A stretch of DNA of 64,000 nucleotides from Candidatus Omnitrophota bacterium (GTDB lineage: Bacteria > Omnitrophota > Gorgyraeia > Gygaellales > Profunditerraquicolaceae): the NCBI GenBank assembly GCA_963805065.1, contig CAWDSS010000010.1, forward strand, positions 856,359-920,358. Reading direction: 5' to 3'. The notes beneath the pieces were generated by a model. The model did no database searches and was not told the DNA's origin. It was given only the letters and a program-made list of their open reading frames with translations. Each line of letters opens with the position of its first letter. Positions within the stretch are counted from its first letter, which is position 1. This document shows positions 10,060 to 54,708 of this stretch, piece by piece. A program made the translations under genes and the position numbers.

Positions 10060-10145
10060 TGGTGCCGAAGAAGGGAGTTGAACCCTTACGAGCTTACGCT
10101 CATCGGTTTTTGAGACCGACATGTATGCCATTCCATCACTTCGGC
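10060..10145 (-). tRNA. tRNA-Leu(CAA), class II with long variable arm, CCA encoded
   Basis: The reverse complement folds as a cloverleaf: GCCGAAG acceptor, anticodon stem TCGGT/ACCGA, loop CTCAAAA, GGTTCAACTCC T-arm. Confidence 0.85.
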
Positions 10146-10154
10146 ATTATTCTG

Positions 10155-10183
10155 TTGACGCCAAACATTTTATATTCTAAAAT
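10155..10183 (+). promoter_or_regulatory. sigma70-type promoter TTGACG-17-TAAAAT, candidate for the tRNA-Ala leader transcript
   Basis: Hexamers and spacing read directly. Confidence 0.45.
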
Positions 10184-10195
10184 AGCAAAGGTCAA
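10167..10195 (-). promoter_or_regulatory. sigma70-type promoter TTGACC-17-TAAAAT for tRNA-Leu, overlapping the divergent + strand promoter
   Basis: Hexamers on the minus strand; the -10 ends about 20 nt before the tRNA-Leu 5' end. Confidence 0.45.
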
Positions 10196-10300
10196 TAGAT
10201 AAATAATTCAAGGTTCTGTGGAAATCGTTCACAGGACCGGAGGCACTTGGCCACATTGTCCAAGTGCCCAAAAGATTTTTTCATTAATGAAAAAACTTTT

Positions 10301-10376
10301 GGGGCTGTAGCTCAGCTGGGAGAGCACTTGCATGGCATGCAAGGGGTCAGGAGTTCAATCCTCCTCAGCTCCACCA
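10301..10376 (+). tRNA. tRNA-Ala(GGC), CCA encoded
   Basis: Aligns position by position with canonical tRNA-Ala. Has the G3:U70 identity pair, anticodon loop ATGGCAT and T-loop TTCAATC. Confidence 0.9.
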
Positions 10377-11256: not shown

Positions 11257-12349
11257 TATATGAGCTATCCATTTAAAGAAATCGAAGAAAAGTGGCAGGC
11301 ATATTGGGCAAAACAGGAAGCCTTTAGCGTAAGAGAAGACTCTGCCAGAAAGAAATTCTATCTTCTGGAAATGTTCCCCTATCCGTCGGGAAAAATTCAC
11401 ATGGGCCATGTGCGTAATTATACTATCGCAGATGTTGCAGCCAGATTTAAGATGATGCAGGGGTTTAATGTTCTGCATCCCATGGGTTTTGACGCATTTG
11501 GCCAGCCCGCAGAAAACGCCGCCATAAAAAATAAAACCAAGCCCGATATCTGGACGCATAAATGCATTAACTGGATGCAGCAGGAATTAAAGAAAATGGG
11601 GTTTTCCTATGATTGGGAAAGAGAAGTTTCTACTTGCGACAGCGATTATTATAAATGGAACCAGTGGATATTTTTAAAAATGTTTGAGCGGGGCCTGGCG
11701 TACAAAAAAGCCTCTTCAGTTAATTGGTGCCCTTCCTGCGAAACGACCTTAGCTAATGAAGAGGTAATTGATGGCGGCTGTTGGCGGTGCAAAACCAAGG
11801 TAGAGCAAAAGGATTTGGAACAATGGTATCTAAAGATTACTGAATATAAAGAGCGCTTGTTAGAAGATTTAAAACAACTTAAAGATTGGCCGGAGAAGGT
11901 ATTAGCAATGCAGACCAACTGGATCGGCAAAAGCCAGGGAGTCCAGATATTATTTTCGCCTGAAAGAGGCTAATGCCGTCATACCGGTTTTTACTACCCG
12001 GGTGGATACTATTTTTGGCGCAACTTATATTGTATTAGCTCCGGAGCATCCGTTAGTCAAAGAGATCATTAAAGATAAACCCCAGGAAAAAGAAGTATTA
12101 AAGTTTATCGATAAAGTTGCCAAAGAAAGCAAAGTTGTGCGCACGGCCTCGGATGTTAAAAAAGAGGGAGTTTTTACCGGCGGCTACGCAATAAATCCGG
12201 TTAATAATGAAGAAGTTCCTATCTGGGTTGCTGATTATGTATTAATGGAATATGGTACAGGCGCGATAATGGCTGTGCCCACGCATGACCAGCGGGATTT
12301 TCTGTTTGCCAAAGAACATAAACTGCCGATGCGTATTGTTATCCAGCCT

Positions 12350-12381
12350 CAGAACCCAGAACCCAGAACCCAGAACCCATT
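12350..12381 (+). repeat. (CAGAACC)x4 + CATT heptamer array, in-frame in leuS
   Basis: Read directly. Encodes [11 protein letters not shown]. Identical 32-mer at 27524..27555. Confidence 0.95.
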
Positions 12382-13179
12382 AACTGAAGCCTACGAAGGC
12401 GACGGCATTCAGGTTAATTCCGGACAATTCAACGGGCTTAACAATCAGCAAGCCAAGCTTAAAATTGCCGAATGGATGGAGAAAACCCATATTGGCAAAA
12501 TCCAAACTCATTGGCGTTTACGCGACTGGCTGATTTCCCGTCAGCGTTATTGGGGCACGCCTATCCCAATGATTTATTGTGCGAAATGCGGTATTGTGCC
12601 TGTGCCGTACAAAGACCTTCCGGTAGAATTACCCAAGGATGCCCCTTTTACAGGAGAAGGCGGCAGCCCATTAGCCAAGGTAAAGGAATTTGTTAATGTC
12701 AAATGCCCGAAATGTAATGGCCCAGCTCGCCGGGAAACCGATACCATGGCCACATTCTTTGATTCTTCCTGGTATTTCTTAAGATTTTGTTCTCCTAAGT
12801 TTAATTACGGGCCATTTGATCAAGGTAGCGCAAAATACTGGATGCCGGTTGATCAATATATTGGCGGTATTGAACATGCTATCCTGCATTTATTGTATTC
12901 ACGTTTTTTTACCAAATTTTTTAAAGACTTAGGGCTGATAGATTTTGATGAACCATTCAGGAAATTGTTAACGCAGGGCATGGTATTAAAAGACGGCGAA
13001 GTAATGTCTAAGTCACGCGGCAATATTGTTGACCCGGATTCCATTATTAAGAATTATGGCGCAGATACCTTAAGGTTATTTATTTTATTTGCCGCTCCTC
13101 CTGAAACTGAATTGGAGTGGGATGATCGTGGCATAGAGGGGGCTTTCAAATTCTTAAACCGGGTATGGCGCATTAAAGA

Positions 13180-13211
13180 AAGTCAAAACTTAAAAGCCAA
13201 AAGTCAAAACT
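13180..13211 (+). repeat. degenerate A-rich heptamer array (units TCAAAAC/TTAAAAG/CCAAAAG/TCAAAAC), in-frame in leuS
   Basis: AAGTCAAAACT recurs with a 21-nt period. About 25/30 nt identical to the lnt array at 27982. Confidence 0.8.
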
Positions 13212-13818
13212 CGAATGAAGACGGCTTAATTAAAACCAGAAAGAAAATGCATGAGACTATTAAAGAAGTCAGCGAAGATATAGAGAATTTTAAATTTAAT
13301 ACTGCTATAGCAAGCTTAATGGAATTAGTAAATACCATCTATCAGTTTGGGGCAGATGAGGAAATATTCTCCAAGTTAGTAATCATGCTTAGCCCCATCG
13401 TCCCGCATTTTGCCGAGGAATTATGGCAGAAGCTGGGTAACAAGGAAAGCATCATCCGGGCTCATTGGCCGCAATACGACCCCAAGATGTTGATTGAAGA
13501 AACAGTTACTATTGTAATCCAGATAAACGGCAAACTGCGCTCAAAAATTGATGTTCCCTCAGACATCTCCGAAGAAAAACTTAAGGAACTTGTGTTTGCC
13601 GATGAAAGATTACAGCCCTGGCTTCAGGGGAAACCCCTCAAAAATTTCATCGTAGTCCCCAAAAAACTGGTTAACATAGTAGTCTAAATCCTCTCCTTTG
13701 CCCGGATATTTGCATTTTCATCAGAGTTAGAAGTTTTTGTCCTGCTTAAGATTAATGCATTTTTGCTTAGCCTGCCTTTTGCGTATTTTAGCTTGTAAAA
13801 TTGAATCGGAGCGGGGGG

Positions 13819-24013: not shown

Positions 24014-26935
24014 ATGTTAAAATTAATCAGAAAAACAATCCTGGAAAACAAGCAGAAGCGTATCAGGCCAGGTTCCCCGGAGTAAATATTACTTTGCATC
24101 CGGAAATGCCCAATCCTTCCCTGAACAAGATGATAGAATTAAGCCGGATTGTGAATGCCATAAACGTGCTGGAACCTAAAATCAGCGCTCTTTCCGATGC
24201 CGAGCTTAAGGCTAAAACAGCCGGATTTAAAGAACATTGCCTAAAGAGGTCCCGGGAATACGAGCAGGAATTGCAGGAATTGGCAGAGTCGATGATGGCA
24301 GTGGCGATTCCTGAAGAGAAAGAGAAATTAAAGAAAAAAGTCAGGGATGTACGCAATAAAATCTTTGAGGAAATATTACCGGAAGCATTCGCGGTTGTAA
24401 GAGAAGCCTCCAGGCGCACAATTGGTCTTAGGCATTTTGATGTGCAGATGCTGGAGGGGTAGTCTTGCATGAGGGCAGGATTGCGGAGATGGCTACCGGT
24501 GAAGGAAAAACTTTGGTGGCAACTTTGCCTGCCTACCTTAATGCATTATTGGGGCAAGGTGTACATGTAGTTACAGTAAATGATTATCTTGCCCGGCGCG
24601 ACCGCGAGTGGATGGGCCCGATTTATGAATTTTTAGGGCTTTCGGTAGGGGTAATACAGCATGAAATGTCCGATGAGGAGAGAAAAATTGCCTATGCCTG
24701 CGATATAACCTACGGGACAAACAATGAATTCGGTTTTGATTATCTGCGCGACAATATGAAATACGGTTTGAATGATTTGGTGCAGAGGCCTTTCTATTAT
24801 GCAATCGTGGACGAAGTAGATTCCATACTTATTGATGAAGCGCGCACGCCGCTAATCATTTCAGGCCCCGCAGAGGAATCTACGGAAAAATATTACACCG
24901 CCAAGAAAATAGCAGACCAGCTAAGAGGAAGGCGGGTTACTGAAAGAGATCAAATCGATGCCAAATACAAGGGAGAAGATTTATCTAAGGGTTTTGATTA
25001 TCTTGCGGATGAGAAGGCCCAGACAGTAGCTTTAACTGAAGAGGGAGAAATAAAAGCAGCTAAGCTTTGGGGCGTAGAAAGTCTGCATCAGCTAGAGACC
25101 ATAGAATATCGTCACCATACTATCCAGGCCTTACGCGCAAAAGAATTTTTTGAACGGGATGTTGATTATGTGGTTAAAGATGGAGAGGTAATTATAGTCG
25201 ATGAATTTACCGGCCGCATGATGCCCGGAAGGCGCTGGTCAGACGGGTTGCATCAGGCAGTGGAGTCAAAAGAAGGCTTAAAAATCGAACGCGAAAATCA
25301 GACCTTAGCTACTATTACCTTCCAGAATTATTTCCGCATGTATGAAAAATTGGCAGGCATGACCGGAACTGCATTTACCGAGGCAAATGAATTTGAAAGC
25401 ATATACCAGCTGGATGTCGTGGTAGTGCCTACCAATAGGCCCTTAATACGTAACAATTAGCCCGGACAGGGTTTATAAAACAGAGAAGGAAAAATTTAAC
25501 GCTGTAGTAGAAGAAATTGCCGAACATTATAACAATGGAAAGCCCGTCTTAGTCGGTACCATTACTATTGATAAATCAGAGCGGCTTTCCGAAATGTTAA
25601 AAAGGCGCGGGATTACCGCATCAGGTGCTTAATGCCAAGTATCACGAGATGGAAGCGCAAATCGTTGCGCAGGCCGGCAGGTACAAAGCAGTAACTATTG
25701 CCACCAATATGGCAGGCCGCGGAACGGATATTTTATTAGGCGGCAACCCCGAATTCATTGCTAAAAACGTGATTAAACAAAAACTAAAACCAGAAGATCC
25801 TATTTATCAGGAGGAGTATAAAAAACTGCTGGATAAATACAAAAGAGAAACAGAAGAAGAACATAAAAAGGTTGTGGAGTTGGGAGGCTTGCATGTTTTG
25901 GGTACAGAACGTCATGAGGCCCGGCGTATTGATAATCAGCTACGCGGCCGGTCAGGCAGGCAGGGTGATCCTGGGTCATCCAGATTTTATGTAGCATTGG
26001 GAGATGATTTAATGCGTTTGTTTGGTTCTGACAGGCTGATCGGCATAATGGATAAGCTGGGATTAGAGGAAGGCCAGGTTATAGAGCATCCGTGGGTGGC
26101 GCGTTCCATAGAAATGGCGCAGAGGCGCGTAGAACAGCATAATTTTGAAATCAGAAAACAACTCCTGGAGTATGACAACGTTATGAATAAGCAGCGGGAA
26201 ATTATTTATGGCCAGCGTAGACAAACCCTGGAAGGGATTTCTTTAAAGGAAGAAGTAGAAGGGATAATTGAGAGGCTCATTGAAGACACCGTAGCAATTC
26301 ACATTCCAGATAACCAGGAGCCTGATGTGGCGGGTTTAGTAAGTATTATGAATTTGAAATTCGGCCTCGGGTTAGAAGTCCCCAAGATAGAAAATTTAAA
26401 CAAGGCCGATTTGAAAGATAAATTATCAGAAGATACGGTTAGCGCATATAACGAGAAAGAGAAGACAATCGGGACAGATTTGATGCGGCATCTTGAGCGC
26501 ATGGTATTTTTGCAGATTATTGACAGCAAATGGAAGGACCACCTTTATGCAATGGATAGCCTAAAAGAAGGGATAGGTCTACGCGCTTATGGGCAACGCG
26601 ATCCCTTGGTAGAATATAAACGTGAGGCATTTGAAATGTTCAGTCAGATGATTGCTTCTATAGAAGATGAGGCAGTGGAAGCGATATTTAAATTGCAGCC
26701 TCCCAAACAGGAAATATTCCGCGGCGTATTTAGCAGAGCTTCTCAGGAATTAATTCATCCCGAGGCAGTTAAATTCCAGAGGCCGCAAAACGAACCGGAA
26801 GAAATAACTGAAAGCCGGTTGCAGCCACAGTCAGCGCCTGCCTCTATCCCCCAACAATCCCATCCGAAGGTAGGAAGAAACGATCCTTGCCCCTGCGGCT
26901 CAGGCAAAAAATACAAAAAATGCTGCGGAAGATAA
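24014..26935 (+). pseudogene. secA: preprotein translocase ATPase SecA, split into four frames by single-base indels and with an anomalous 5' end
   Basis: Fragments 24094..24462, 24465..25460, ~25458..25632 and 25625..26935 together read as a complete SecA ([20 protein letters not shown] Walker A, C-terminal [14 protein letters not shown] zinc motif). Confidence 0.9.
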
Positions 26936-28434
26936 AACCATTAAAGTTTTGCATATTATCGGCGATCATCCTGGCTTTGCCATATGCGAACGCAAAGTTA
27001 TGGATTTTTGCCTGGTTTGGTTTCCTGCCTTTATTGGCTGCTCTTGCGGGTAAATCTAAACCTAAGGCATTCTTATTATCTTATCTTACGGGAATTATTT
27101 TCTGGACGCTGGTTATTTACTGGTTAGTGCATGTTACATTGCCAGGCACAATTATTCTCATTTTATATTTGGCATTATATTTTGGGATATTTGGCGTTTT
27201 AGTTACGAGCATCGAGCATCGAGCATCGAGCATCCTATTTTTGATTCCAGCCATATGGGTTTTGCTGGAATACGCGCGTTCACATCTATTGACGGGTTTT
27301 CCCTGGGCGCTTTTAGCTTATTCCCAGTATGAGAATTTGCCCATTATACAGATCGCAGATATAACGGGAGCGTGGGGAGTGTCGTTTGTGGTGATGTTAG
27401 TAAATACAACCGTTTATGGGGTTCTAGGTTCTAGGTTCTCGGTTCTAGGAAAAATCAAGAAATGCATACCTGTTTTATTATGTATTATTGTTGTACTTGG
27501 TTATGGATATTATAAGCTTTTGCCAGAACCCAGAACCCAGAACCCAGAACCCATTCGTATATCCGTCATTCAAGGAAACATCCCCCAGGAATTAAAATGG
27601 GACTCTTCCGCCAGGCAATATATTTTAAGCCAATACGCAAGATTAACAAGACAGGCAGCCAAAGACCATCCCGGCCTGATTATTTGGCCGGAAGCAGCCA
27701 GCCCCGGGTTATTAGGAGAAGATGATGCAGTTTTTGAAGAAATTGATTCTTTGGCAAGGAATGTCAAGGTGCCGTTACTCGTCGGAACAGTAGCCAAAGA
27801 CGGCAAGGAATATTTTAACAGCGCCATATTGATTAATCCAAGCGGTGAAATTGCCGCCCGTTACAATAAATTACACCTTGTCCCCTTCGGAGAATACATA
27901 CCTTTAAAGAAATACCTTCCGTTTCTGGAGACTATAGTTCCAATAGGAGATATCACAAGGGGTAAGGAATATACAATATTCCAAAACTTAAAACCTAAAA
28001 CGCAAAACGCGGAAAAATTTGCGGTTTTAATTTGCTTTGAAGATTTATTCCCTGAGCTTTCACGTAAGTTTATTCAGGGGGGGGCTCAATTTTTAGTTAA
28101 TATAACTAATGATGCATGGTATAAGGAAACCTCAGCACCTTATCAACATTTACAGGCATCGGTATTCAGGGCTGTGGAAAATCGCGTATTCTTAGTGCGC
28201 GCTGCCAATACAGGCATTTCCGGGTTTATTGCGCCTAGCGGAAGAATCGTATCTATTGTGCACGGCAAAAGGGACAGAGAAATATTTACCGATGGATACG
28301 AAACCCTGGAGATTCCGCTTCCTATTCCTAAGTCAAGCCCAACTTTTTATAACCGCTGTGGTGATTATTTTGTGTTGATTTGCTTTTTTACTTTTACCTT
28401 TTTGCTTTTACCTTTTAACTTTTTAAAAGATTAA
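26920..28434 (+). CDS. lnt: apolipoprotein N-acyltransferase
   Basis: Multi-TM N-terminal half plus CN-hydrolase domain (WPE, LICFE catalytic Cys, NITNDAW). Confidence 0.85.
27207..27234 (+). repeat. (GAGCATC)x4 perfect heptamer array, in-frame in lnt
   Basis: Read directly. Encodes SIEHRASSI. Confidence 0.95.
27420..27449 (+). repeat. (GGTTCTA)x4 heptamer array (third unit GGTTCTC), in-frame in lnt
   Basis: Read directly. GGTTCTN is the reverse complement of NAGAACC. Encodes [10 protein letters not shown]. Confidence 0.95.
27524..27555 (+). repeat. (CAGAACC)x4 + CATT heptamer array, in-frame in lnt
   Basis: Identical 32-mer to leuS 12350..12381. Encodes [10 protein letters not shown]. Confidence 0.95.
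27982..28016 (+). repeat. degenerate A-rich heptamer array (CAAAACT TAAAACC TAAAACG CAAAACG CGGAAAA), in-frame in lnt
   Basis: Read directly. Homologous to leuS 13180..13211. Encodes [12 protein letters not shown]. Confidence 0.8.
28383..28425 (+). repeat. degenerate T-rich heptamer array (CTTTTAC CTTTTTG CTTTTAC CTTTTAA CTTTTTA) at the lnt 3' end
   Basis: Read directly. Its reverse complement is NNAAAAG, the same family as the A-rich arrays. Encodes [12 protein letters not shown]. Confidence 0.8.
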
Positions 28435-31942: not shown

Positions 31943-32440
31943 ATGTTAAACCTGGAATTAATCAAGATAAACAAGCCCGATGACGTAAATTTGATTTTAG
32001 GCCAAAGCCACTTTATAAAAACGGTAGAAGATTTGTATGAGGTTTTAGTAAATTGCGTCCCGGGCATAAAATTCGGCTTGGCATTTGTAGAATCCTCCGG
32101 AGCCTGCAAAATAAGAGCAGAAGGAAATGATCCTGAATTAAAGCAGCTGGCAAGTGATAATGCCTTAAAGATTGGCGCAGGGCATAGTTTTCTTGTTTTT
32201 ATGAGGGAGGCATATCCTATAAACGTACTGAATGCGATTAAAAATATACCGGAGGTCTGTACGATATATTGCGCTTCTGCAAACCCGGTTCAGGTTATTG
32301 TGGCGCAAGACCAAGATCAAGGCCGCGGCATTTTAGGGGTTATTGACGGACAAAAGCCCAAAGGTATGGAAACAGAAGCTGATATTGCCTGGCGCAAAGA
32401 ATTCCTGCGTAAAATCGGCTATAAGCTAAGCGAGCACTAA
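31943..32440 (+). CDS. adenosine-specific kinase-like protein (PF04008-type)
   Basis: GQSHFIKTVEDL, VPGIKFGLAF.ESSG, GAGHSF, PINVLN and CASANP blocks recalled from that family. SD GGAGGAG. Confidence 0.55.
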   Translation: MLNLELIKINKPDDVNLILGQSHFIKTVEDLYEVLVNCVPGIKFGLAFVESSGACKIRAEGNDPELKQLASDNALKIGAGHSFLVFMREAYPINVLNAIKNIPEVCTIYCASANPVQVIVAQDQDQGRGILGVIDGQKPKGMETEADIAWRKEFLRKIGYKLSEH

Positions 32441-32479
32441 ACTTACGGAGTGCACTAATCACGACGTAAGTTTAGTGCT
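32432..32479 (+). other. perfect 16-bp-arm hairpin (GAGCACTAAACTTACG/CGTAAGTTTAGTGCTC) overlapping the stop codon
   Basis: Read directly. The loop carries a second GCACTAA copy. No U-tract follows. Confidence 0.85.
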
Positions 32480-32535
32480 CATTGAATTGTCCTTGAATTT
32501 TTGCACCCTTTTGTTATAATTCATTTACTCTTACC

Positions 32536-36397: not shown

Positions 36398-36410
36398 GGA
36401 GGAAAGAGTG

Positions 36411-37151
36411 ATGAGAAAAAAGTTACTGCTTGCAGGGTGCATTTTTTTAGCCGTTACTTTTGCAGGCTGTGCTTCACTAATGCAGCCTAGCGCCCAGGTA
36501 GATAATTATGCGGGTGCCGCGCCGTTACCTCCTTATTCAGGCCCCAGGGCAAGGATAGCAGTGGCGGATTTTGATGTTAAAGCAGCAAAGGCAGGAGGAG
36601 AGATAGGCACAGGGCTACGAGAGATGTTGGTTACTGCACTGATTAACAGCAGCAGATTCAGCGTGGTTGAACGCCAGGCGCTGAATGCGGTTATGCAGGA
36701 ACAAGAATTAGGAGCTTCGGGTGCGGCGCAGCCAGGTGCTGGCGGAGCGCAGAGAGGCAAAATTAAAACAGCAGATCTGATTATTACTGCTGCTGTGACA
36801 GAATTTGAACCTGAGGCCTCAGGAGGCAGGGCAGGTATAGGCGGCGGAGGAGGAGTTGGCAGCGGAGTATTGGGTGCATTATTGGGAGCCTCCTTAAATA
36901 AAGCTCACATGGCTTTAGACATACGCATTATAGACGCCTCTACTTCTGAAGTTTTGGCAGCTACTCGCGTGCAGGGTCAGGCGTCTGATGTTTCCGGAGG
37001 TGCTTTAGGAGGATTTTTCGGCAATTGGGCATTGGGAGCAGGGCTTTACGGTTATGCAAATACACCTATGGAAAAGGCAATTCGTATTTGTATAATTGAA
37101 GGAGTACGCTATATTTCACAGACTATACCGGCAAATTATTTTAAGTACTAA
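36411..37151 (+). CDS. CsgG-family lipoprotein (curli-type secretion channel family)
   Basis: Lipobox FAGC, RIAVADFD, LREMLVTALINSSRFSVVERQ, ADLIITAAVTEFE, LDIRIIDASTSEVL. Confidence 0.7.
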   Translation: MRKKLLLAGCIFLAVTFAGCASLMQPSAQVDNYAGAAPLPPYSGPRARIAVADFDVKAAKAGGEIGTGLREMLVTALINSSRFSVVERQALNAVMQEQELGASGAAQPGAGGAQRGKIKTADLIITAAVTEFEPEASGGRAGIGGGGGVGSGVLGALLGASLNKAHMALDIRIIDASTSEVLAATRVQGQASDVSGGALGGFFGNWALGAGLYGYANTPMEKAIRICIIEGVRYISQTIPANYFKY

Positions 37152-37160
37152 GTGAAGCAG

Positions 37161-37219
37161 GCTCGGGATTCCCGCTTATGCGGGATTTCGCTAGATAAGA
37201 GCGTAAGGTGCTCAAAATT
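37161..37219 (+). repeat. ~60-nt conserved intergenic element, copy A (hairpin CGGGATTCCCGC-TTAT-GCGGGATTTCG plus promoter-like TAGATA-16-AAAATT)
   Basis: About 53/59 nt identical to 54462..54521. Confidence 0.9.
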
Positions 37220-37245: not shown

Positions 37246-37326
37246 ATGGGAAAAAGAAAGAGAAGAGGCAAGCTGAACTGGCGCTCTAAGAAAGCCAATA
37301 AGGGAAGAAGGCCTTGTCTGGGGTAA
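37246..37326 (+). CDS. 26-aa highly basic micro-protein MGKRKRRGKLNWRSKKANKGRRPCLG (possible bTHX-like ribosomal peptide)
   Basis: ATG..TAA ORF below the track cutoff, directly downstream of the promoter-like element. MGK..RRGK.xWR...RP resembles Thx as I recall it. Confidence 0.3.
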   Translation: MGKRKRRGKLNWRSKKANKGRRPCLG

Positions 37327-37380
37327 ATTCGCGCATATAACTTATGTCGTACTTCGTACTCCATAAGTTATGCGCTGATT
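37327..37380 (+). repeat. bulged hairpin family member H1 (ATTC-GCGC-A[TA]TAAC...GTTAT-GCGC-TGATT)
   Basis: 5+9 bp stem with a 2-nt bulge. The loop is the tandem heptamer TCGTACT TCGTACT. Confidence 0.85.
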
Positions 37381-37384
37381 GTAG

Positions 37385-37442
37385 ATACCCTCCGTTATGC
37401 ACTTCGCAGATTTCTTTGAAATCTGCTCGTAACGTCGGGTAT
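37385..37442 (+). repeat. long imperfect hairpin H2 with inner GCAGATTTC-TTT-GAAATCTGC stem, preceded by GTAG
   Basis: Outer ATACCC/GGGTAT and CGTTATG/CGTAACG pairings read directly. Confidence 0.8.
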
Positions 37443-37444
37443 TA

Positions 37445-37495
37445 ATTCGGCCAAATAATTTACGTTCACTTCGTTCCGTAAATTATGGCCTCATT
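37445..37495 (+). repeat. bulged hairpin family member H3 (ATTC-GGCC-A[AA]TAAT...ATTAT-GGCC-TCATT), abutting the SD of the next gene
   Basis: Same architecture as H1 and 54519..54570, with compensatory base-pair changes. Confidence 0.85.
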
Positions 37496-37509
37496 AAAAG
37501 GAGGTGGGT

Positions 37510-37764
37510 ATGCAGGAAACAGAGATAGGTACAATTACTCACTATTACGGCCACTTAAGCGTGGGTATAATCGAACTCTCAGGAGCACTCAAGGTAAACG
37601 AAGCCATACATATTAAGGGCCACTCCTCTGATTTTTCTCAACAGATAGACTCAATGCAGGTTGAGCATGCAAGCGTCTCTGAGGCAAAGGCAGGAGATGT
37701 TATCGGTGTAAAGCTGACTCAAAAGGCGCATCCTCACGATAAAGTCTATAAAGTTATCCCATAG
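37510..37764 (+). CDS. small EF-Tu domain-2-like beta-barrel protein
   Basis: SD AGGAGGTG. IGTITHYY..L.VGIIEL...L.V...IHI.G pattern resembling stand-alone GTP_EFTU_D2-like proteins. Confidence 0.45.
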   Translation: MQETEIGTITHYYGHLSVGIIELSGALKVNEAIHIKGHSSDFSQQIDSMQVEHASVSEAKAGDVIGVKLTQKAHPHDKVYKVIP

Positions 37765-52455: not shown

Positions 52456-54426
52456 ATGAAAGAAACAAATACCTGTCATTACTGCCATATGGTAGAGGAT
52501 TTTAAGAAGAGATTCTGGGTCTGTCTTGTCTTGACTATCCCTGTCCTAATTCTTTCACCCATGATTCAGGAATTCTTGCGCATCGGTTCATTATTGAGAT
52601 TCAGGGGGGATATGTATGTACTCTTTATCCTCTCCTCAATTATATTCTTTTACGGCGGCGTTCCGTTCTTTAAGGGACTTGCGGGAGAGCTGAAAGATAA
52701 ACAGCCGGGTATGATGACTTTAATTGCACTGGCTATAATCTTAGCTTACTTCTATAGCACAGCCGTCGTGTTTGGCCTGGGTGGAAAAATATTCTTTTGG
52801 GAACTGGTAACGCTTATAGATATTATGCTCTTAGGCCATTGGATAGAAATGAACTCTGTAATGGGCGCAGAAGGCGCATTGGAAGACTTAGCCAATCTGC
52901 TTCCTGCGCAGGCGCACAGGGTAGGCCCGGATGGCAGCATAAAAGATACTCCACTTGAGGAGCTAAATCCCCATGATATTGTTCTTATTAAGCCGGGAGA
53001 AAAAATACCTGCGGATGGGGTGGTGATTAAGGGTGAAACATCGGTGAATGAAGCAATGCTTACAGGCGAATCCCTTCCTGTATTAAAGAAAATAGGAAAC
53101 CAGGTAATAGGCGGTTCCATTAATTCAGAAGGCTCCATTACTGTAAAGATCAATAAGACAAAGCAGGACTTATTTATTTCCCGGGTTATCGAATTGGTCA
53201 GTGAGGCAAAGCAAAGTAAATCACACACGCAGGATTTAGCTAACCGTGCGGCTTTATGGCTTACAGTTGTTGCCCTTGTTGCCGGAGCGATTACGCTTTT
53301 TATGTGGCTACTGCCGATGAACAAGGATTTTGCTTTTGCCTTGGAAAGGGCAGTAACTGTGATGGTAATTACCTGCCCTCATGCCTTGGGGTTGGCAATA
53401 CCGTTAGTAGTCGCCGTCTCTACAGCCATTGCTGCAAAGAACGGGTTGTTAATTAGAAACCGGGTTGCTTTTGAAAAAGCCAGGAATATTCAGGCAGTCA
53501 TCTTCGATAAAACAGGCACCCTTACCGAAGGCAAATTCGCAGTAACCAGCGTAATTCCTTTGTCAAAAGACACAGATGAAAACGAGATCCTGAAATTAGC
53601 AGCTTCTCTGGAATCGTATTCTGAACATTCTATCGCGAAAGCAATAGTATCTTCTTCTAAGGAAATTATACCTGTGGATGGTTTTAGGGCCATTCCGGGC
53701 GAGGGAATAGAAGGGCGCATTTACGGTCGGCAAGCCAAGGTTGTTAGCCGCAGCTATTTAAACCAGAAAAATATTTCAGTCAGCGAAGATTTAGCCAAGA
53801 AAATATCTTCTCAAGGCAATACATCTGTTTTCCTGCTTCTGGACGGCGAGCCCAAAGGCGCTATTACTCTATCCGACATCATCAGGCCGGAGTCGCAAAA
53901 AGCAATCACGCTGCTTAAGAAGATGGGGATTAAATGCATGATGCTTACGGGAGACAATAAACAGGTTGCAATGCAGGTTGCTTCTCAACTTGGATTGGAT
54001 GAATATTTTGCAGAGGTATTGCCCGGGGAAAAGGTAGCAAAAATTAAGCAAGTCCAGCAAAGAGGCTTGGTTGTGGCGATGGTGGGAGACGGCATAAATG
54101 ATGCGCCTGCGTTAGCCCAGGCTGATGTGGGAATTGCCATCGGCGCAGGGACTGACGTGGCTGTTAATACAGCTGATATAATTCTTGTAAAGAATAATCC
54201 GCTGGACGCAGTTAAGATAATCGGGCTTGCGAAAGCCACTTACCGAAAGATGGTGGAAAATCTATTATGGGCAACCGGCTACAATGCATTCGCTATCCCG
54301 CTTGCAGCAGGCGTGCTTTATAAGCCGGGAATAATTTTAAGCCCTGCCCTGGGAGCATTATTAATGTCTTTAAGCACCATAATTGTTGCCATAAACGCTA
54401 GATTCTTGCGGTTATCCCTCGCGTAA
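52456..54426 (+). CDS. heavy-metal P1B-type ATPase, CPH (CopB/P1B-3-like) subtype, no HMA domain
   Basis: TGES, CPH in TM4 (ITCPHALGLA), DKTGTLT, GDGINDAP, MSLST in the last TM. N-terminal CHYCH. Confidence 0.85.
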   Translation: MKETNTCHYCHMVEDFKKRFWVCLVLTIPVLILSPMIQEFLRIGSLLRFRGDMYVLFILSSIIFFYGGVPFFKGLAGELKDKQPGMMTLIALAIILAYFYSTAVVFGLGGKIFFWELVTLIDIMLLGHWIEMNSVMGAEGALEDLANLLPAQAHRVGPDGSIKDTPLEELNPHDIVLIKPGEKIPADGVVIKGETSVNEAMLTGESLPVLKKIGNQVIGGSINSEGSITVKINKTKQDLFISRVIELVSEAKQSKSHTQDLANRAALWLTVVALVAGAITLFMWLLPMNKDFAFALERAVTVMVITCPHALGLAIPLVVAVSTAIAAKNGLLIRNRVAFEKARNIQAVIFDKTGTLTEGKFAVTSVIPLSKDTDENEILKLAASLESYSEHSIAKAIVSSSKEIIPVDGFRAIPGEGIEGRIYGRQAKVVSRSYLNQKNISVSEDLAKKISSQGNTSVFLLLDGEPKGAITLSDIIRPESQKAITLLKKMGIKCMMLTGDNKQVAMQVASQLGLDEYFAEVLPGEKVAKIKQVQQRGLVVAMVGDGINDAPALAQADVGIAIGAGTDVAVNTADIILVKNNPLDAVKIIGLAKATYRKMVENLLWATGYNAFAIPLAAGVLYKPGIILSPALGALLMSLSTIIVAINARFLRLSLA

Positions 54427-54429
54427 TCA

Positions 54430-54458
54430 TCCCGAAAATCTCTTTGAGATTTCCGGGA
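54430..54458 (+). repeat. hairpin TCCCGAAAATCTC-TTTG-AGATTTCCGGGA directly after the ATPase stop
   Basis: Same CTTTGA loop as the inner H2 hairpin (37406..37426), with a different covarying stem. Confidence 0.8.
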
Positions 54459-54461
54459 TAC

Positions 54462-54521
54462 GCTCGGGATTCCCGCTTACGCGGGATTTCGCTAGACAAA
54501 AGCTTGAGGTGCTCAATAATT
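54462..54521 (+). repeat. ~60-nt conserved intergenic element, copy B (hairpin plus promoter-like TAGACA-16-AATAAT)
   Basis: About 53/59 nt identical to 37161..37219. Confidence 0.9.
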
Positions 54522-54570
54522 CGCGCAAATAACCCAGCACATAAATTATGTGCTGGGTTATGCGCTCATT
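54519..54570 (+). repeat. bulged hairpin family member (ATTC-GCGC-A[AA]TAAC CCAGCACAT...ATGTGCTGG GTTAT-GCGC-TCATT), abutting an SD
   Basis: Same conserved base and 2-nt bulge as 37327..37380 and 37445..37495; the upper stem is unrelated. Confidence 0.85.
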
Positions 54571-54586
54571 TAAGGAGGTGATATTG

Positions 54587-54649
54587 ATGAGTTGCGGAAG
54601 TTGCGGGCCGAAGAAGCCAAAGAAAAAAGCCAAGAAGAAAAAGAAATAA
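54587..54649 (+). CDS. 20-aa micro-protein MSCGSCGPKKPKKKAKKKKK
   Basis: Near-perfect SD AAGGAGGTG 7 nt upstream. Flanked by hairpins on both sides. Below the track cutoff. Confidence 0.4.
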   Translation: MSCGSCGPKKPKKKAKKKKK

Positions 54650-54659
54650 ATTCTTATAA

Positions 54660-54690
54660 GGCAGATACAGCTTTATTAGCTGTATCTGCC
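54660..54690 (+). other. perfect 12-bp stem hairpin GGCAGATACAGC/GCTGTATCTGCC after the micro-ORF
   Basis: Read directly. No U-tract. Confidence 0.8.
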
Positions 54691-54708
54691 TGTATACTGG
54701 AGGCATGA

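Follow-up and report, generated by a model that had tools for sequence, protein, structure and literature searches.

The repetitive extragenic palindromes and bacterial interspersed mosaic elements (REP/BIME) of Proteobacteria are mobilised by RAYT proteins (TnpA_REP, of the Y1/HUH type) and reach tens to hundreds of copies per genome, and in Correia elements the junctions can yield promoter-like hexamers or terminator-like hairpins. To our knowledge, almost all descriptions of small dispersed repeats come from cultivated Proteobacteria, Firmicutes and a few pathogens, and our literature search found no published account of such repeats in Omnitrophota, an uncultivated phylum of ultra-small cells. 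We have analysed an intergenic 60-mer that occurs twice in a 64,000-nucleotide (nt) stretch of a Candidatus Omnitrophota genome (the window, positions 856,359 to 920,358 of contig CAWDSS010000010.1). The host genome is 1.19 Mb in size, and its intergenic spacers are often 0-20 nt long. We consider it likely that the 60-mer is a building block of a lineage-specific, mosaic, hairpin-forming family of intergenic repeats in Candidatus Omnitrophota, akin in kind to REP/BIME, BOX and MITE-type repeats (MITE, a miniature transposable element with inverted repeats). The family is probably mobile, with any regulatory effect being secondary, and the 60-mer is not a dedicated control element of the tiny genes that adjoin it.

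The two copies, A (37161-37215) and B (54462-54516), share 91% identity over 55 nt. In the window, a 35-nt IUPAC consensus that allows three or fewer mismatches matches these two sites only, with 0.00 matches expected from 100 shuffles, and a core profile search of the window found no copies beyond A and B. A hairpin, TCCCGC-TTAY-GCGGGA (H1), folds in both copies. Copy A follows an open reading frame (ORF) of the CsgG family (36408..37151), copy B follows that of a copper-translocating P-type ATPase (52456..54426), and a small basic ORF lies 3' of each (26 amino acids at 37246-37326 and 20 amino acids at 54587-54649). In the pairwise alignment, the similarity drops abruptly on both sides and the flanks are unrelated; since the flank similarity collapses in this way, the pair is not a collinear segmental duplication. 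A preliminary description of the two loci had already given about 90% identity, a hairpin in the 5' half, the position behind stop codons, the small basic ORFs and the unrelated neighbouring intergenic regions, and all of these points hold. Its picture of a single element of about 60 nt needs to be widened. The repeat is real, but the similarity extends further, with related hairpin units nearby in differing order, and the element at locus B begins at 54414, overlapping the ATPase stop codon. An independent short-read assembly contig of the same organism (L056; L numbers denote the loci compared with the window) is 100% identical to the window across the part it covers, and therefore the repeat sequence is genuine and no assembly artefact. 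The first base of L056 corresponds to window position 54541, and the contig ends exactly at the loop of a right-unit hairpin of 14 bp or more; the repeat palindromes fragment assemblies.

The 60-mer consists of the 6-bp GC hairpin H1 (TCCCGC-N4-GCGGGA) and a tail, TTTCGCT…GGTGCTCAAT, and the full composite has the order left unit (U_L), H1, tail, right unit (U_R). The left unit reads ATCCC-TC-GCCT-AA-…-AGGC-TC-GGGAT and is sometimes just ATCCCGCC-loop-GGCGGGAT. The tail consensus across the copies with extended architecture (group 1, below) is TTTCGCT…(A)AGGTGCTCAAT. The right unit opens with AATTCG and a 5-bp GC stem, which is followed by a 2-nt bulge or an inserted branch hairpin; its 3' part is formed by (C/T)AACTTAYG…CRTAAGTT(G/A), the stem complement and CTCATTnAA. 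Tail and right unit have the flank pattern TTCG(C)…GCTCAWT in common. The left and right units are alike in geometry: an outer 4-6-bp stem, a TC/TC internal loop and a 4-5-bp GC stem, inward of which follow a 2-nt 5' bulge and a variable tip. The window holds three loci with about eight units in 64 kb of the 1.19-Mb genome. Composite B spans 54414-54573, and locus A comprises 37152-37219 and three units past the first small ORF (37325-37498). The units and the two flanking micro-ORFs are as follows, with scores of the right-unit covariance model R1 (described below).

32430-32486, plus strand (tentative): solitary right-type unit at an ORF end, GAGCACTAAACTTACG…CGTAAGTTTAGTGCTC-ATTGAA, found with R1 (27.5 bits on the minus strand, 21.8 bits on the plus strand) and by its fold (-30.5 kcal/mol, z -7.6).
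37152-37169, plus strand: left end of composite A, read from the sequence as GTGAAG and the 3' half of a left unit (…AGGC-TC-GGGAT), beginning directly after the CsgG-like stop codon (37149-37151); the same GTGAAG end opens two inserts of L043 that are absent from L039, three inserts in all.
37170-37185, plus strand: H1 of copy A, TCCCGC-TTAT-GCGGGA, from the consensus scan and fold.
37186-37219, plus strand: tail unit of copy A, TTTCGCT-AGATAAGAGCGTAA-GGTGCTCAAAATT, from comparison with the other copies; elsewhere the unit encloses its own hairpin, and the tail in the window is a shortened, degenerate version of it.
37246-37326, plus strand: micro-ORF A, 26 amino acids, MGKRKRRGKLNWRSKKANKGRRPCLG, supported by an orthologue in L007; a flanking gene outside the repeat.
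37325-37383, plus strand: right unit, AAATTCG-GCGCA-TA-TAACTTATG…CATAAGTTA-TGCGC-TGATTG (R1 70.8 bits, fold z -4.9), starting within the micro-ORF A stop codon and missing at the orthologous site of L007.
37385-37442, plus strand: left-type unit, ATACCC-TC-CGTTA…TAACG-TC-GGGTAT (fold -25.2 kcal/mol, z -6.3), of the same architecture as 54414-54470.
37443-37498, plus strand: second right unit of locus A, ending …GGCCTCATTAAA (R1 71.8 bits, fold z -5.3), immediately 5' of the AGGAGG of the next gene.
54414-54470, plus strand: left unit of composite B, ATCCC-TC-GCGT…ACGC-TC-GGGAT (fold -28 kcal/mol, z -5.9), overlapping the copper ATPase ORF at its last codons and stop codon (54424-54426).
54471-54486, plus strand: H1 of copy B, TCCCGC-TTAC-GCGGGA, from the consensus scan and fold.
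54487-54521, plus strand: tail unit of copy B, TTTCGCT-AGACAAAAGCTTGA-GGTGCTCAATAATT, from the promoter scan and copy alignment, holding sigma-70-like TAGACA (54493-54498) and AATAAT (54515-54520).
54517-54573, plus strand: right unit of composite B, ending …GCGCTCATTTAA (R1 48 bits; fold -30.4 kcal/mol, z -6.9), immediately 5' of the Shine-Dalgarno (SD) sequence of micro-ORF B; L056 breaks at its tip.
54587-54649, plus strand: micro-ORF B, 20 amino acids, MSCGSCGPKKPKKKAKKKKK, supported by homologues elsewhere; a flanking gene outside the repeat.

The units are separable and reorderable and are found in either orientation. In L035 and L004 (minus strand), the left unit is joined straight to the right unit with H1 absent, and L035 and L005:3040-3165 have GGTGCTCATTTA(A/C) without a right unit. 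The tail encloses its own hairpin or a longer insert in L005, L007, L002, L027 and L018. It always lies at most 1-2 nt 3' of a hairpin, the sequence of which is unrelated in two copies (L004 and L005). L031 represents two tandem composites and L043 an inverted pair.

These units are not confined to the window. They were found in at least 15 distinct Omnitrophota metagenome-assembled genomes (MAGs) and metagenome contigs, beside unrelated genes. When one genome per species was scanned with the exact hairpin core, five loci were obtained in four MAGs of Omnitrophota type. Four of these loci are in Candidatus Omnitrophota MAGs; the bin that holds the fifth carries the label Planctomycetales and shares synteny with the window at a tRNA-Ala/tRNA-Leu pair. 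Three of the five matches lie near tRNA genes. A slightly relaxed core gave 32 metagenome loci. About 18 non-redundant copies (group 1) have the extended architecture in common, and further units without H1 were recovered by nhmmer and the covariance model. The H1 stem is identical in 18 copies from other contigs while its loop varies, an invariance that is partly the product of the exact-match search pattern. Conservation of the units is 80-100% between genomes that have only 50% identity in their CsgG-like orthologues. Since the units are conserved across divergent genomes and yet stand at different loci, they come from a constrained source and are not copies that decay in place; non-autonomous repeats that a conserved enzyme recognises behave in this way.

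All units are intergenic or overlap just the last few codons of a gene. The genes 3' of the copies encode GlmU, NusB, rubrerythrin, a glutaredoxin-like protein, an ACT-domain protein, membrane proteins and tRNA-Tyr. About 17 of 25 units are co-directional with the downstream gene, a count in which the units are not independent of each other. In either orientation, the unit ends abut an SD sequence or a stop codon, and in the opposite orientation the TTTAA end of the block overlaps a convergent stop codon. Viral contigs gave no match to the exact core or to the right-unit pattern, and blastn against plasmids and phages gave none. The six viral matches to GGTGCTCAATAATTCG are all chance matches inside GC-rich coding DNA.

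In a second group of contigs, the same hairpin is followed almost directly by CGCTCAACATT (L009, L011, L019, L020, L023, L029, L032, L006/L016/L028 and L012/L014/L030), often within heptamer-periodic AT-rich intergenic DNA. In L006, L016 and L028, the hairpin lies between a truncated duplicate of the 5' part of a gene (…KIRVVTAASLFDGHDAAIN) and the full gene. This group may represent a related minimal form of the tail unit in other lineages.

Seven comparisons between filled and empty sites show gain or loss of units exactly in the gap from a stop codon to the SD sequence of the next gene. In L007, the orthologous spacer between the CsgG-like gene and micro-ORF A is about 53 nt long and lacks the 60-mer, and the next gene begins 18 nt past micro-ORF A; compared with L007, the window has about 70 nt inserted 5' of micro-ORF A and about 175 nt inserted 3' of it (U_R-U_L-U_R). 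Downstream of tRNA-Leu(CAA), it is L004 that is filled and the orthologous site of the window that is empty. The most detailed case is L043, which carries four extra blocks (90, 292, about 120 and 145 nt) relative to L039, its relative with about 93% identity. The 90-nt block is a left-plus-right dimer ending in ACTCATTTG|AGGAGG, and the 292-nt block opens exactly with ATCCCGC. The blocks of about 120 and 145 nt open with GTGAAG right after the stop codon, as copy A does, and end in CTCATT(T/A)A(A)|AGGAG. Three of the four inserts lie exactly between a stop codon and AGGAG. As for locus B, micro-ORF B is followed by PNPOx without the element in L038 and L055, and about 115 kb of related oxidative-stress loci lack the core. 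On the basis of these sequence comparisons, we read both window copies as insertions beside pre-existing micro-protein genes. The recurrence at non-orthologous sites in many Omnitrophota genomes, together with presence and absence at orthologous sites, bears out what the preliminary description had listed as a dispersed module or mobile-element remnant.

Direct repeats of at least 10 nt flank copies at only two sites, both at tRNA genes. The composite by tRNA-Leu(CAA) (L004:2506-2683) is flanked by a 21-nt repeat of the tRNA 3' end and downstream sequence, AACTCCCTTCTTCGGCACTTA, and the composite by tRNA-Thr(TGT) (L005, minus strand, about 828-1000) is flanked by a corresponding 27-nt repeat, ATTCCCTTCTTCGGCTTGATATTGAGA. 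Downstream of tRNA-Ala, in L004 (minus strand, 2215-1900), three nested direct repeats are interleaved with units. The junctions at four clean filled/empty sites differ in sequence and have just AT-rich 2-4-mers in common. The two ends of the 145-nt insert of L043 are right-type units in inverted orientation, with about 14 of 18 nt identical as judged by eye. The tRNA-Leu(CAA)/tRNA-Ala(GGC) pair itself is divergent and is present in the window (10060-10376) and in L004 (2216-2523); a conserved sigma-70-like promoter, TTGACC-17-TAAAAT, stands upstream of tRNA-Leu and provides a native promoter reference for the lineage.

The structure of the units is conserved as well. Built on eight right units without branches, the covariance model R1 recovers 18-20 units among the loci examined. 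In the right-unit alignment (A10), 93.5% of cells are paired, with changes on both sides in 15 of 18 pairs (58 cells). None of 500 shuffles reached the observed value on any of the measures, and the covariation score was 0.42, compared with 0.03-0.10 in a control in which the partner was slid. The second stem of the left unit covaries as well (GCCT/AGGC, GCGT/ACGC, GCTT/AAGC, GTCT/AGAC and CGTTA/TAACG), with compensatory changes in the left units of L003, L018, L021, L031 and L035 that are homologous to that of composite B. All units in the window fold with z-scores of -4.9 to -7.6.

Both micro-ORFs were found elsewhere without the element, and therefore their association with it is incidental. 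The link implied by the preliminary description thus falls away, and other copies precede unrelated genes. Micro-ORF A has an orthologue after the orthologous CsgG-like gene of L007 (10985-11065) with 25 of 26 amino acids identical. The two differ by 14 synonymous codon changes and one conservative change (R to K), and their CsgG-like neighbours are only 50% identical; judged by this codon pattern, micro-ORF A is a strongly constrained protein gene. Micro-ORF B has homologues of 20-21 amino acids at L038:9757, L039:14380, L043:14472, L044:6313 and L055:3918, with the family form M[SG]CG.CG…KKAKKKKK or MGCG(V/A)CG…KKAKKKKK, that is, a CxxC motif and a poly-Lys tail. They lie, with strong SD sequences, within oxidative-stress clusters of PNPOx, rubredoxin, rubrerythrin and superoxide reductase; in L038 and L055 the homologue stands directly upstream of PNPOx, as it does in the window. 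The synonymous changes and conserved Cys positions argue that micro-ORF B is a real gene. A conserved hairpin, GGCAGATA…TATCTGCC, follows micro-ORF B in the window (54659-54691), L039 and L043. The micro-ORFs matched no known family, and both are absent from the protein collection since they are too short for gene callers. A resemblance of micro-ORF A to the ribosomal protein bTHX was dropped after no match in PDB, Pfam or NCBIfam and no BLASTP alignment to a Thx sequence. Past composite A, an 86-amino-acid ORF (37504-37764) shows weak similarity to EF-Tu domain 2; it probably starts at an ATG near 37510, preceded by AAGGAGGTG, rather than at the GTG at 37504.

We propose that the units are non-autonomous and spread with the help of an enzyme acting in trans. 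This enzyme would recognise their hairpin geometry together with the short flanks ATCCC/GGGAT and AATTCG/CTCATT; going by REP/RAYT and IS200/IS605, its most plausible substrate would be single-stranded DNA. Once inserted, the units would be transcribed in operon mRNAs as stable hairpins that do not mask the downstream SD sequence, and this would account for their being tolerated. Where there is terminator or promoter activity, for instance from TAGACA-16-AATAAT in copy B, it would be a by-product of unit junctions and not what the sequence exists for.

Several points weigh against a mobile repeat family. We found no transposase, recombinase or autonomous parent in the annotated loci examined, full genomes not having been searched, and copies with exact H1 are few, at one or two per MAG. 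Neither a consistent target-site duplication nor a consistent terminal inverted repeat defines the ends, and composites A and B have no such inverted repeat. Gain and loss at the filled and empty sites were distinguished by parsimony with no outgroup. H1 and the tail are very highly conserved in divergent genomes, and this might instead be due to a role in the host, for example as the binding site of a protein or as an RNA element. As for the covariation, alignment A10 was fitted to the model structure, and palindromic repeats may keep complementarity without selection on RNA. The strand signals also conflict in a comparison of G·U with A·C pairs and of plus- with minus-strand energies: for 12 of 15 right units the minus strand gives the slightly better fold, whereas whole intergenic segments favour the plus strand.

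The alternative that survives best is a terminator-plus-promoter cassette, in which H1 ends the upstream gene, TAGAYA-16-AATAAT starts a transcript into the next gene and the right-hand hairpin would protect the transcript 5' end. Such a cassette had been put forward in the preliminary description, and we consider it unlikely as the identity of the element. The promoter half finds its best case in copy B, where the sigma-70 scan called TAGACA-16-AATAAT with 10 of 12 matches and a 16-nt spacer. Copy A reached only 7 of 12 and was not called, so that the promoter-like pattern described for both loci passes the scan at one of them only. Of 18 copies, about 11 have a -35-like hexamer, T[AG][GA]A[TC][AT], 16-18 nt upstream of AATAAT with at least 8 of 12 matches. 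Most copies run in the direction of the downstream gene, an SD sequence lies 1-5 nt past the right unit in composite B, L003, L010, L021 and L031, copies lie between divergent genes in L007 and L021, and the native tRNA-Leu promoter of the lineage is itself sigma-70-like. Against this, the -35-like segment is the least conserved part of the core, and the conserved bases (G.GCT.A) lie in the would-be spacer. The AATAAT arises where tail and right unit meet (GCTCAAT|AATTCG) and is lost without the right unit, leaving GGTGCTCATTTAA. In L005, L007, L018, L027 and L002, a hairpin of 20-120 nt stands between the supposed -35 and -10. Since the -35 is poorly conserved, the AATAAT is junction-made and inserts lie between the hexamers, a promoter is not what defines the element, and promoter activity of copy B is possible without being its defining feature. 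On the terminator side, the scan (at least five T in the 8 nt after the stem) reported H1 in neither copy, although canonical U-tract terminators exist in the lineage; H1 fails the scan because the tail ATTTCGCT has too few U. Furthermore, units are antisense to both neighbours in L013, L035 and L043, and orthologous loci function without the element. Accordingly, terminator and promoter functions are at most a side effect of units that occur in both orientations.

A possibility related to the mobile repeat family, and a rather improbable one in our estimation, is that the units form a new class of structure-defined mobile modules with a layered, attC-like geometry (outer stem, TC/TC internal loop, GC stem, 2-nt extrahelical bulge and exchangeable tip), moved by a putative single-strand-specific recombinase or nuclease of Omnitrophota and inserting specifically at the stop/SD boundary (…TA|AGGAG…) and at tRNA 3' ends. 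If this were true, the modules would duplicate 21-27 nt of target at tRNA 3' ends, and their insertions would rewire translational coupling and transcript stability in streamlined genomes of about 1 Mb.

We give little credence to a structured RNA that regulates in cis (leader or riboswitch-like), or to a gene for a small RNA, in the service of the micro-ORFs or stress genes. The strong covariation of the hairpins, the slightly better plus-strand folding of whole intergenic segments and the copies upstream of rubrerythrin (L021), the glutaredoxin-like gene (L003) and the micro-ORF B/PNPOx/superoxide reductase cluster of the window would agree with it. On the other hand, the other downstream genes are unrelated (glmU, nusB, tRNA-Tyr, membrane proteins and the ACT-domain protein), and the units hold no consistent position or orientation upstream of any one functional gene class. 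Both orientations occur, unit order and number vary, no single multi-helix fold is conserved across units, and relatives have the orthologous genes without the element. There was no Rfam match to the element at gathering or permissive thresholds in the window and 31 loci, the best score at the element being 19 bits for RsmY against a gathering threshold of 57; all Rfam matches lie elsewhere (tRNAs, one c-di-GMP riboswitch, one group II intron and Gut-1). The small-RNA gene suggested earlier also lacks synteny and defined ends.

The chance is slight that the 60-mer is a conserved site to which a DNA- or RNA-binding protein of the host attaches (a nucleoid protein, a recombinase or an RNase, for example), a site that selection retains in many intergenic places and that is not itself mobile. 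This would account for an H1 stem and GGTGCTCA that are near-invariant across genomes with about 50% protein identity, and for a hairpin geometry (outer stem, TC/TC loop, GC stem and 2-nt bulge) that is repeated with different sequences. However, the H1 invariance comes partly from the exact-match search, and a host site alone leaves unexplained the precise composite insertions of 90-290 nt between close relatives and the tandem, inverted and nested units. Chance similarity or a recent segmental duplication in this genome, which the presence of just two full copies in the 64-kb window might suggest (the preliminary description had named a longer recent duplication among the cases that would undo it), is refuted by the expectation of 0.00, the unrelated flanks and the presence of the sequence in many other genomes, and its probability is negligible.

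A separate observation in the window concerns an identical 32-nt tract, (CAGAACC)x4+CATT, at 12350-12381 and 27524-27555. It lies within two unrelated long ORFs (12002..13687 and 26887..28434), where it is read in different frames, and looks like an in-frame intragenic repeat insertion.

A mobile repeat family in Omnitrophota would matter in several respects. For annotation, its blocks mimic promoters, terminators or small RNAs, and they break assemblies. For genome evolution, they indicate that reduced genomes still gain and lose intergenic DNA. For mechanism, the conserved geometry and flanks point to a putative recognising enzyme. As a by-product, the analysis provided two conserved, very short genes missed by gene callers, one encoding a basic protein of 26 amino acids and the other a 20-amino-acid protein with CxxC and a poly-Lys tail.

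Among the described systems, several features of REP/BIME are found in the Omnitrophota units. These are short imperfect palindromes, intergenic or at gene ends, which combine with linker motifs into mosaics of variable number and orientation and stand singly, in tandem or as inverted pairs (REPINs, to be compared with L043:16068-16206). The hairpin shape is kept while the sequence covaries, and the units are tolerated within operons. On the other hand, the 5' GTAG/GTGG tetranucleotide of REP is absent, the flanks here being AATTCG/CTCATT and ATCCC/GGGAT, and the units are longer (55-110 nt), and have a defined internal loop, a bulge and a tip that is variable or branched. No RAYT gene is linked to the units in the annotated loci, full genomes not having been searched; the copy number appears modest in the 64 kb seen, and the host belongs to an uncultivated, genome-reduced phylum.

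The BOX elements of Streptococcus pneumoniae and the Correia- and ERIC-type MITEs resemble the units in their modular boxes of varying number, their stable structure and their position near gene starts and ends, and the presence/absence polymorphism at orthologous sites is MITE-like. They differ in that the Omnitrophota units show no consistent terminal inverted repeats, no fixed-length target duplication and no sequence similarity to them, and no related insertion sequence was found. An ordinary terminator followed by a sigma-70 promoter resembles copy B in its GC-rich hairpin after a stop codon with -35- and -10-like hexamers behind it, and is set apart by the weak U-tract, the poorly conserved, junction-made hexamers, the dispersal to non-orthologous sites and the absence at orthologous ones.

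Integron attC sites recall the units in their outer stem, unpaired loop, inner stem, extrahelical bases on one arm and variable or branched tip, and in conserving structure, not sequence, a resemblance that is architectural only. The R''/R' boxes (RYYYAAC…GTTRRRY) are not at the stem base, where the right unit has (T/A)AAT/ATT(A/T), the AAC/GTT triplets lying above the bulge; the units delimit no cassette organisation, and no integron integrase was seen. By eye, a sigma-54 promoter (the GG-N10-GC spacing does not fit), an Xer/dif site (GGTGCTCAATAA is like the XerC arm, with no XerD arm), a NusB/E boxA (GCTCAA without a U-run) and CRISPR repeats (no regular spacing) were also set aside. No described repeat family fits the Omnitrophota units, which fall within the known kind of small, dispersed, palindromic and mosaic intergenic repeats.

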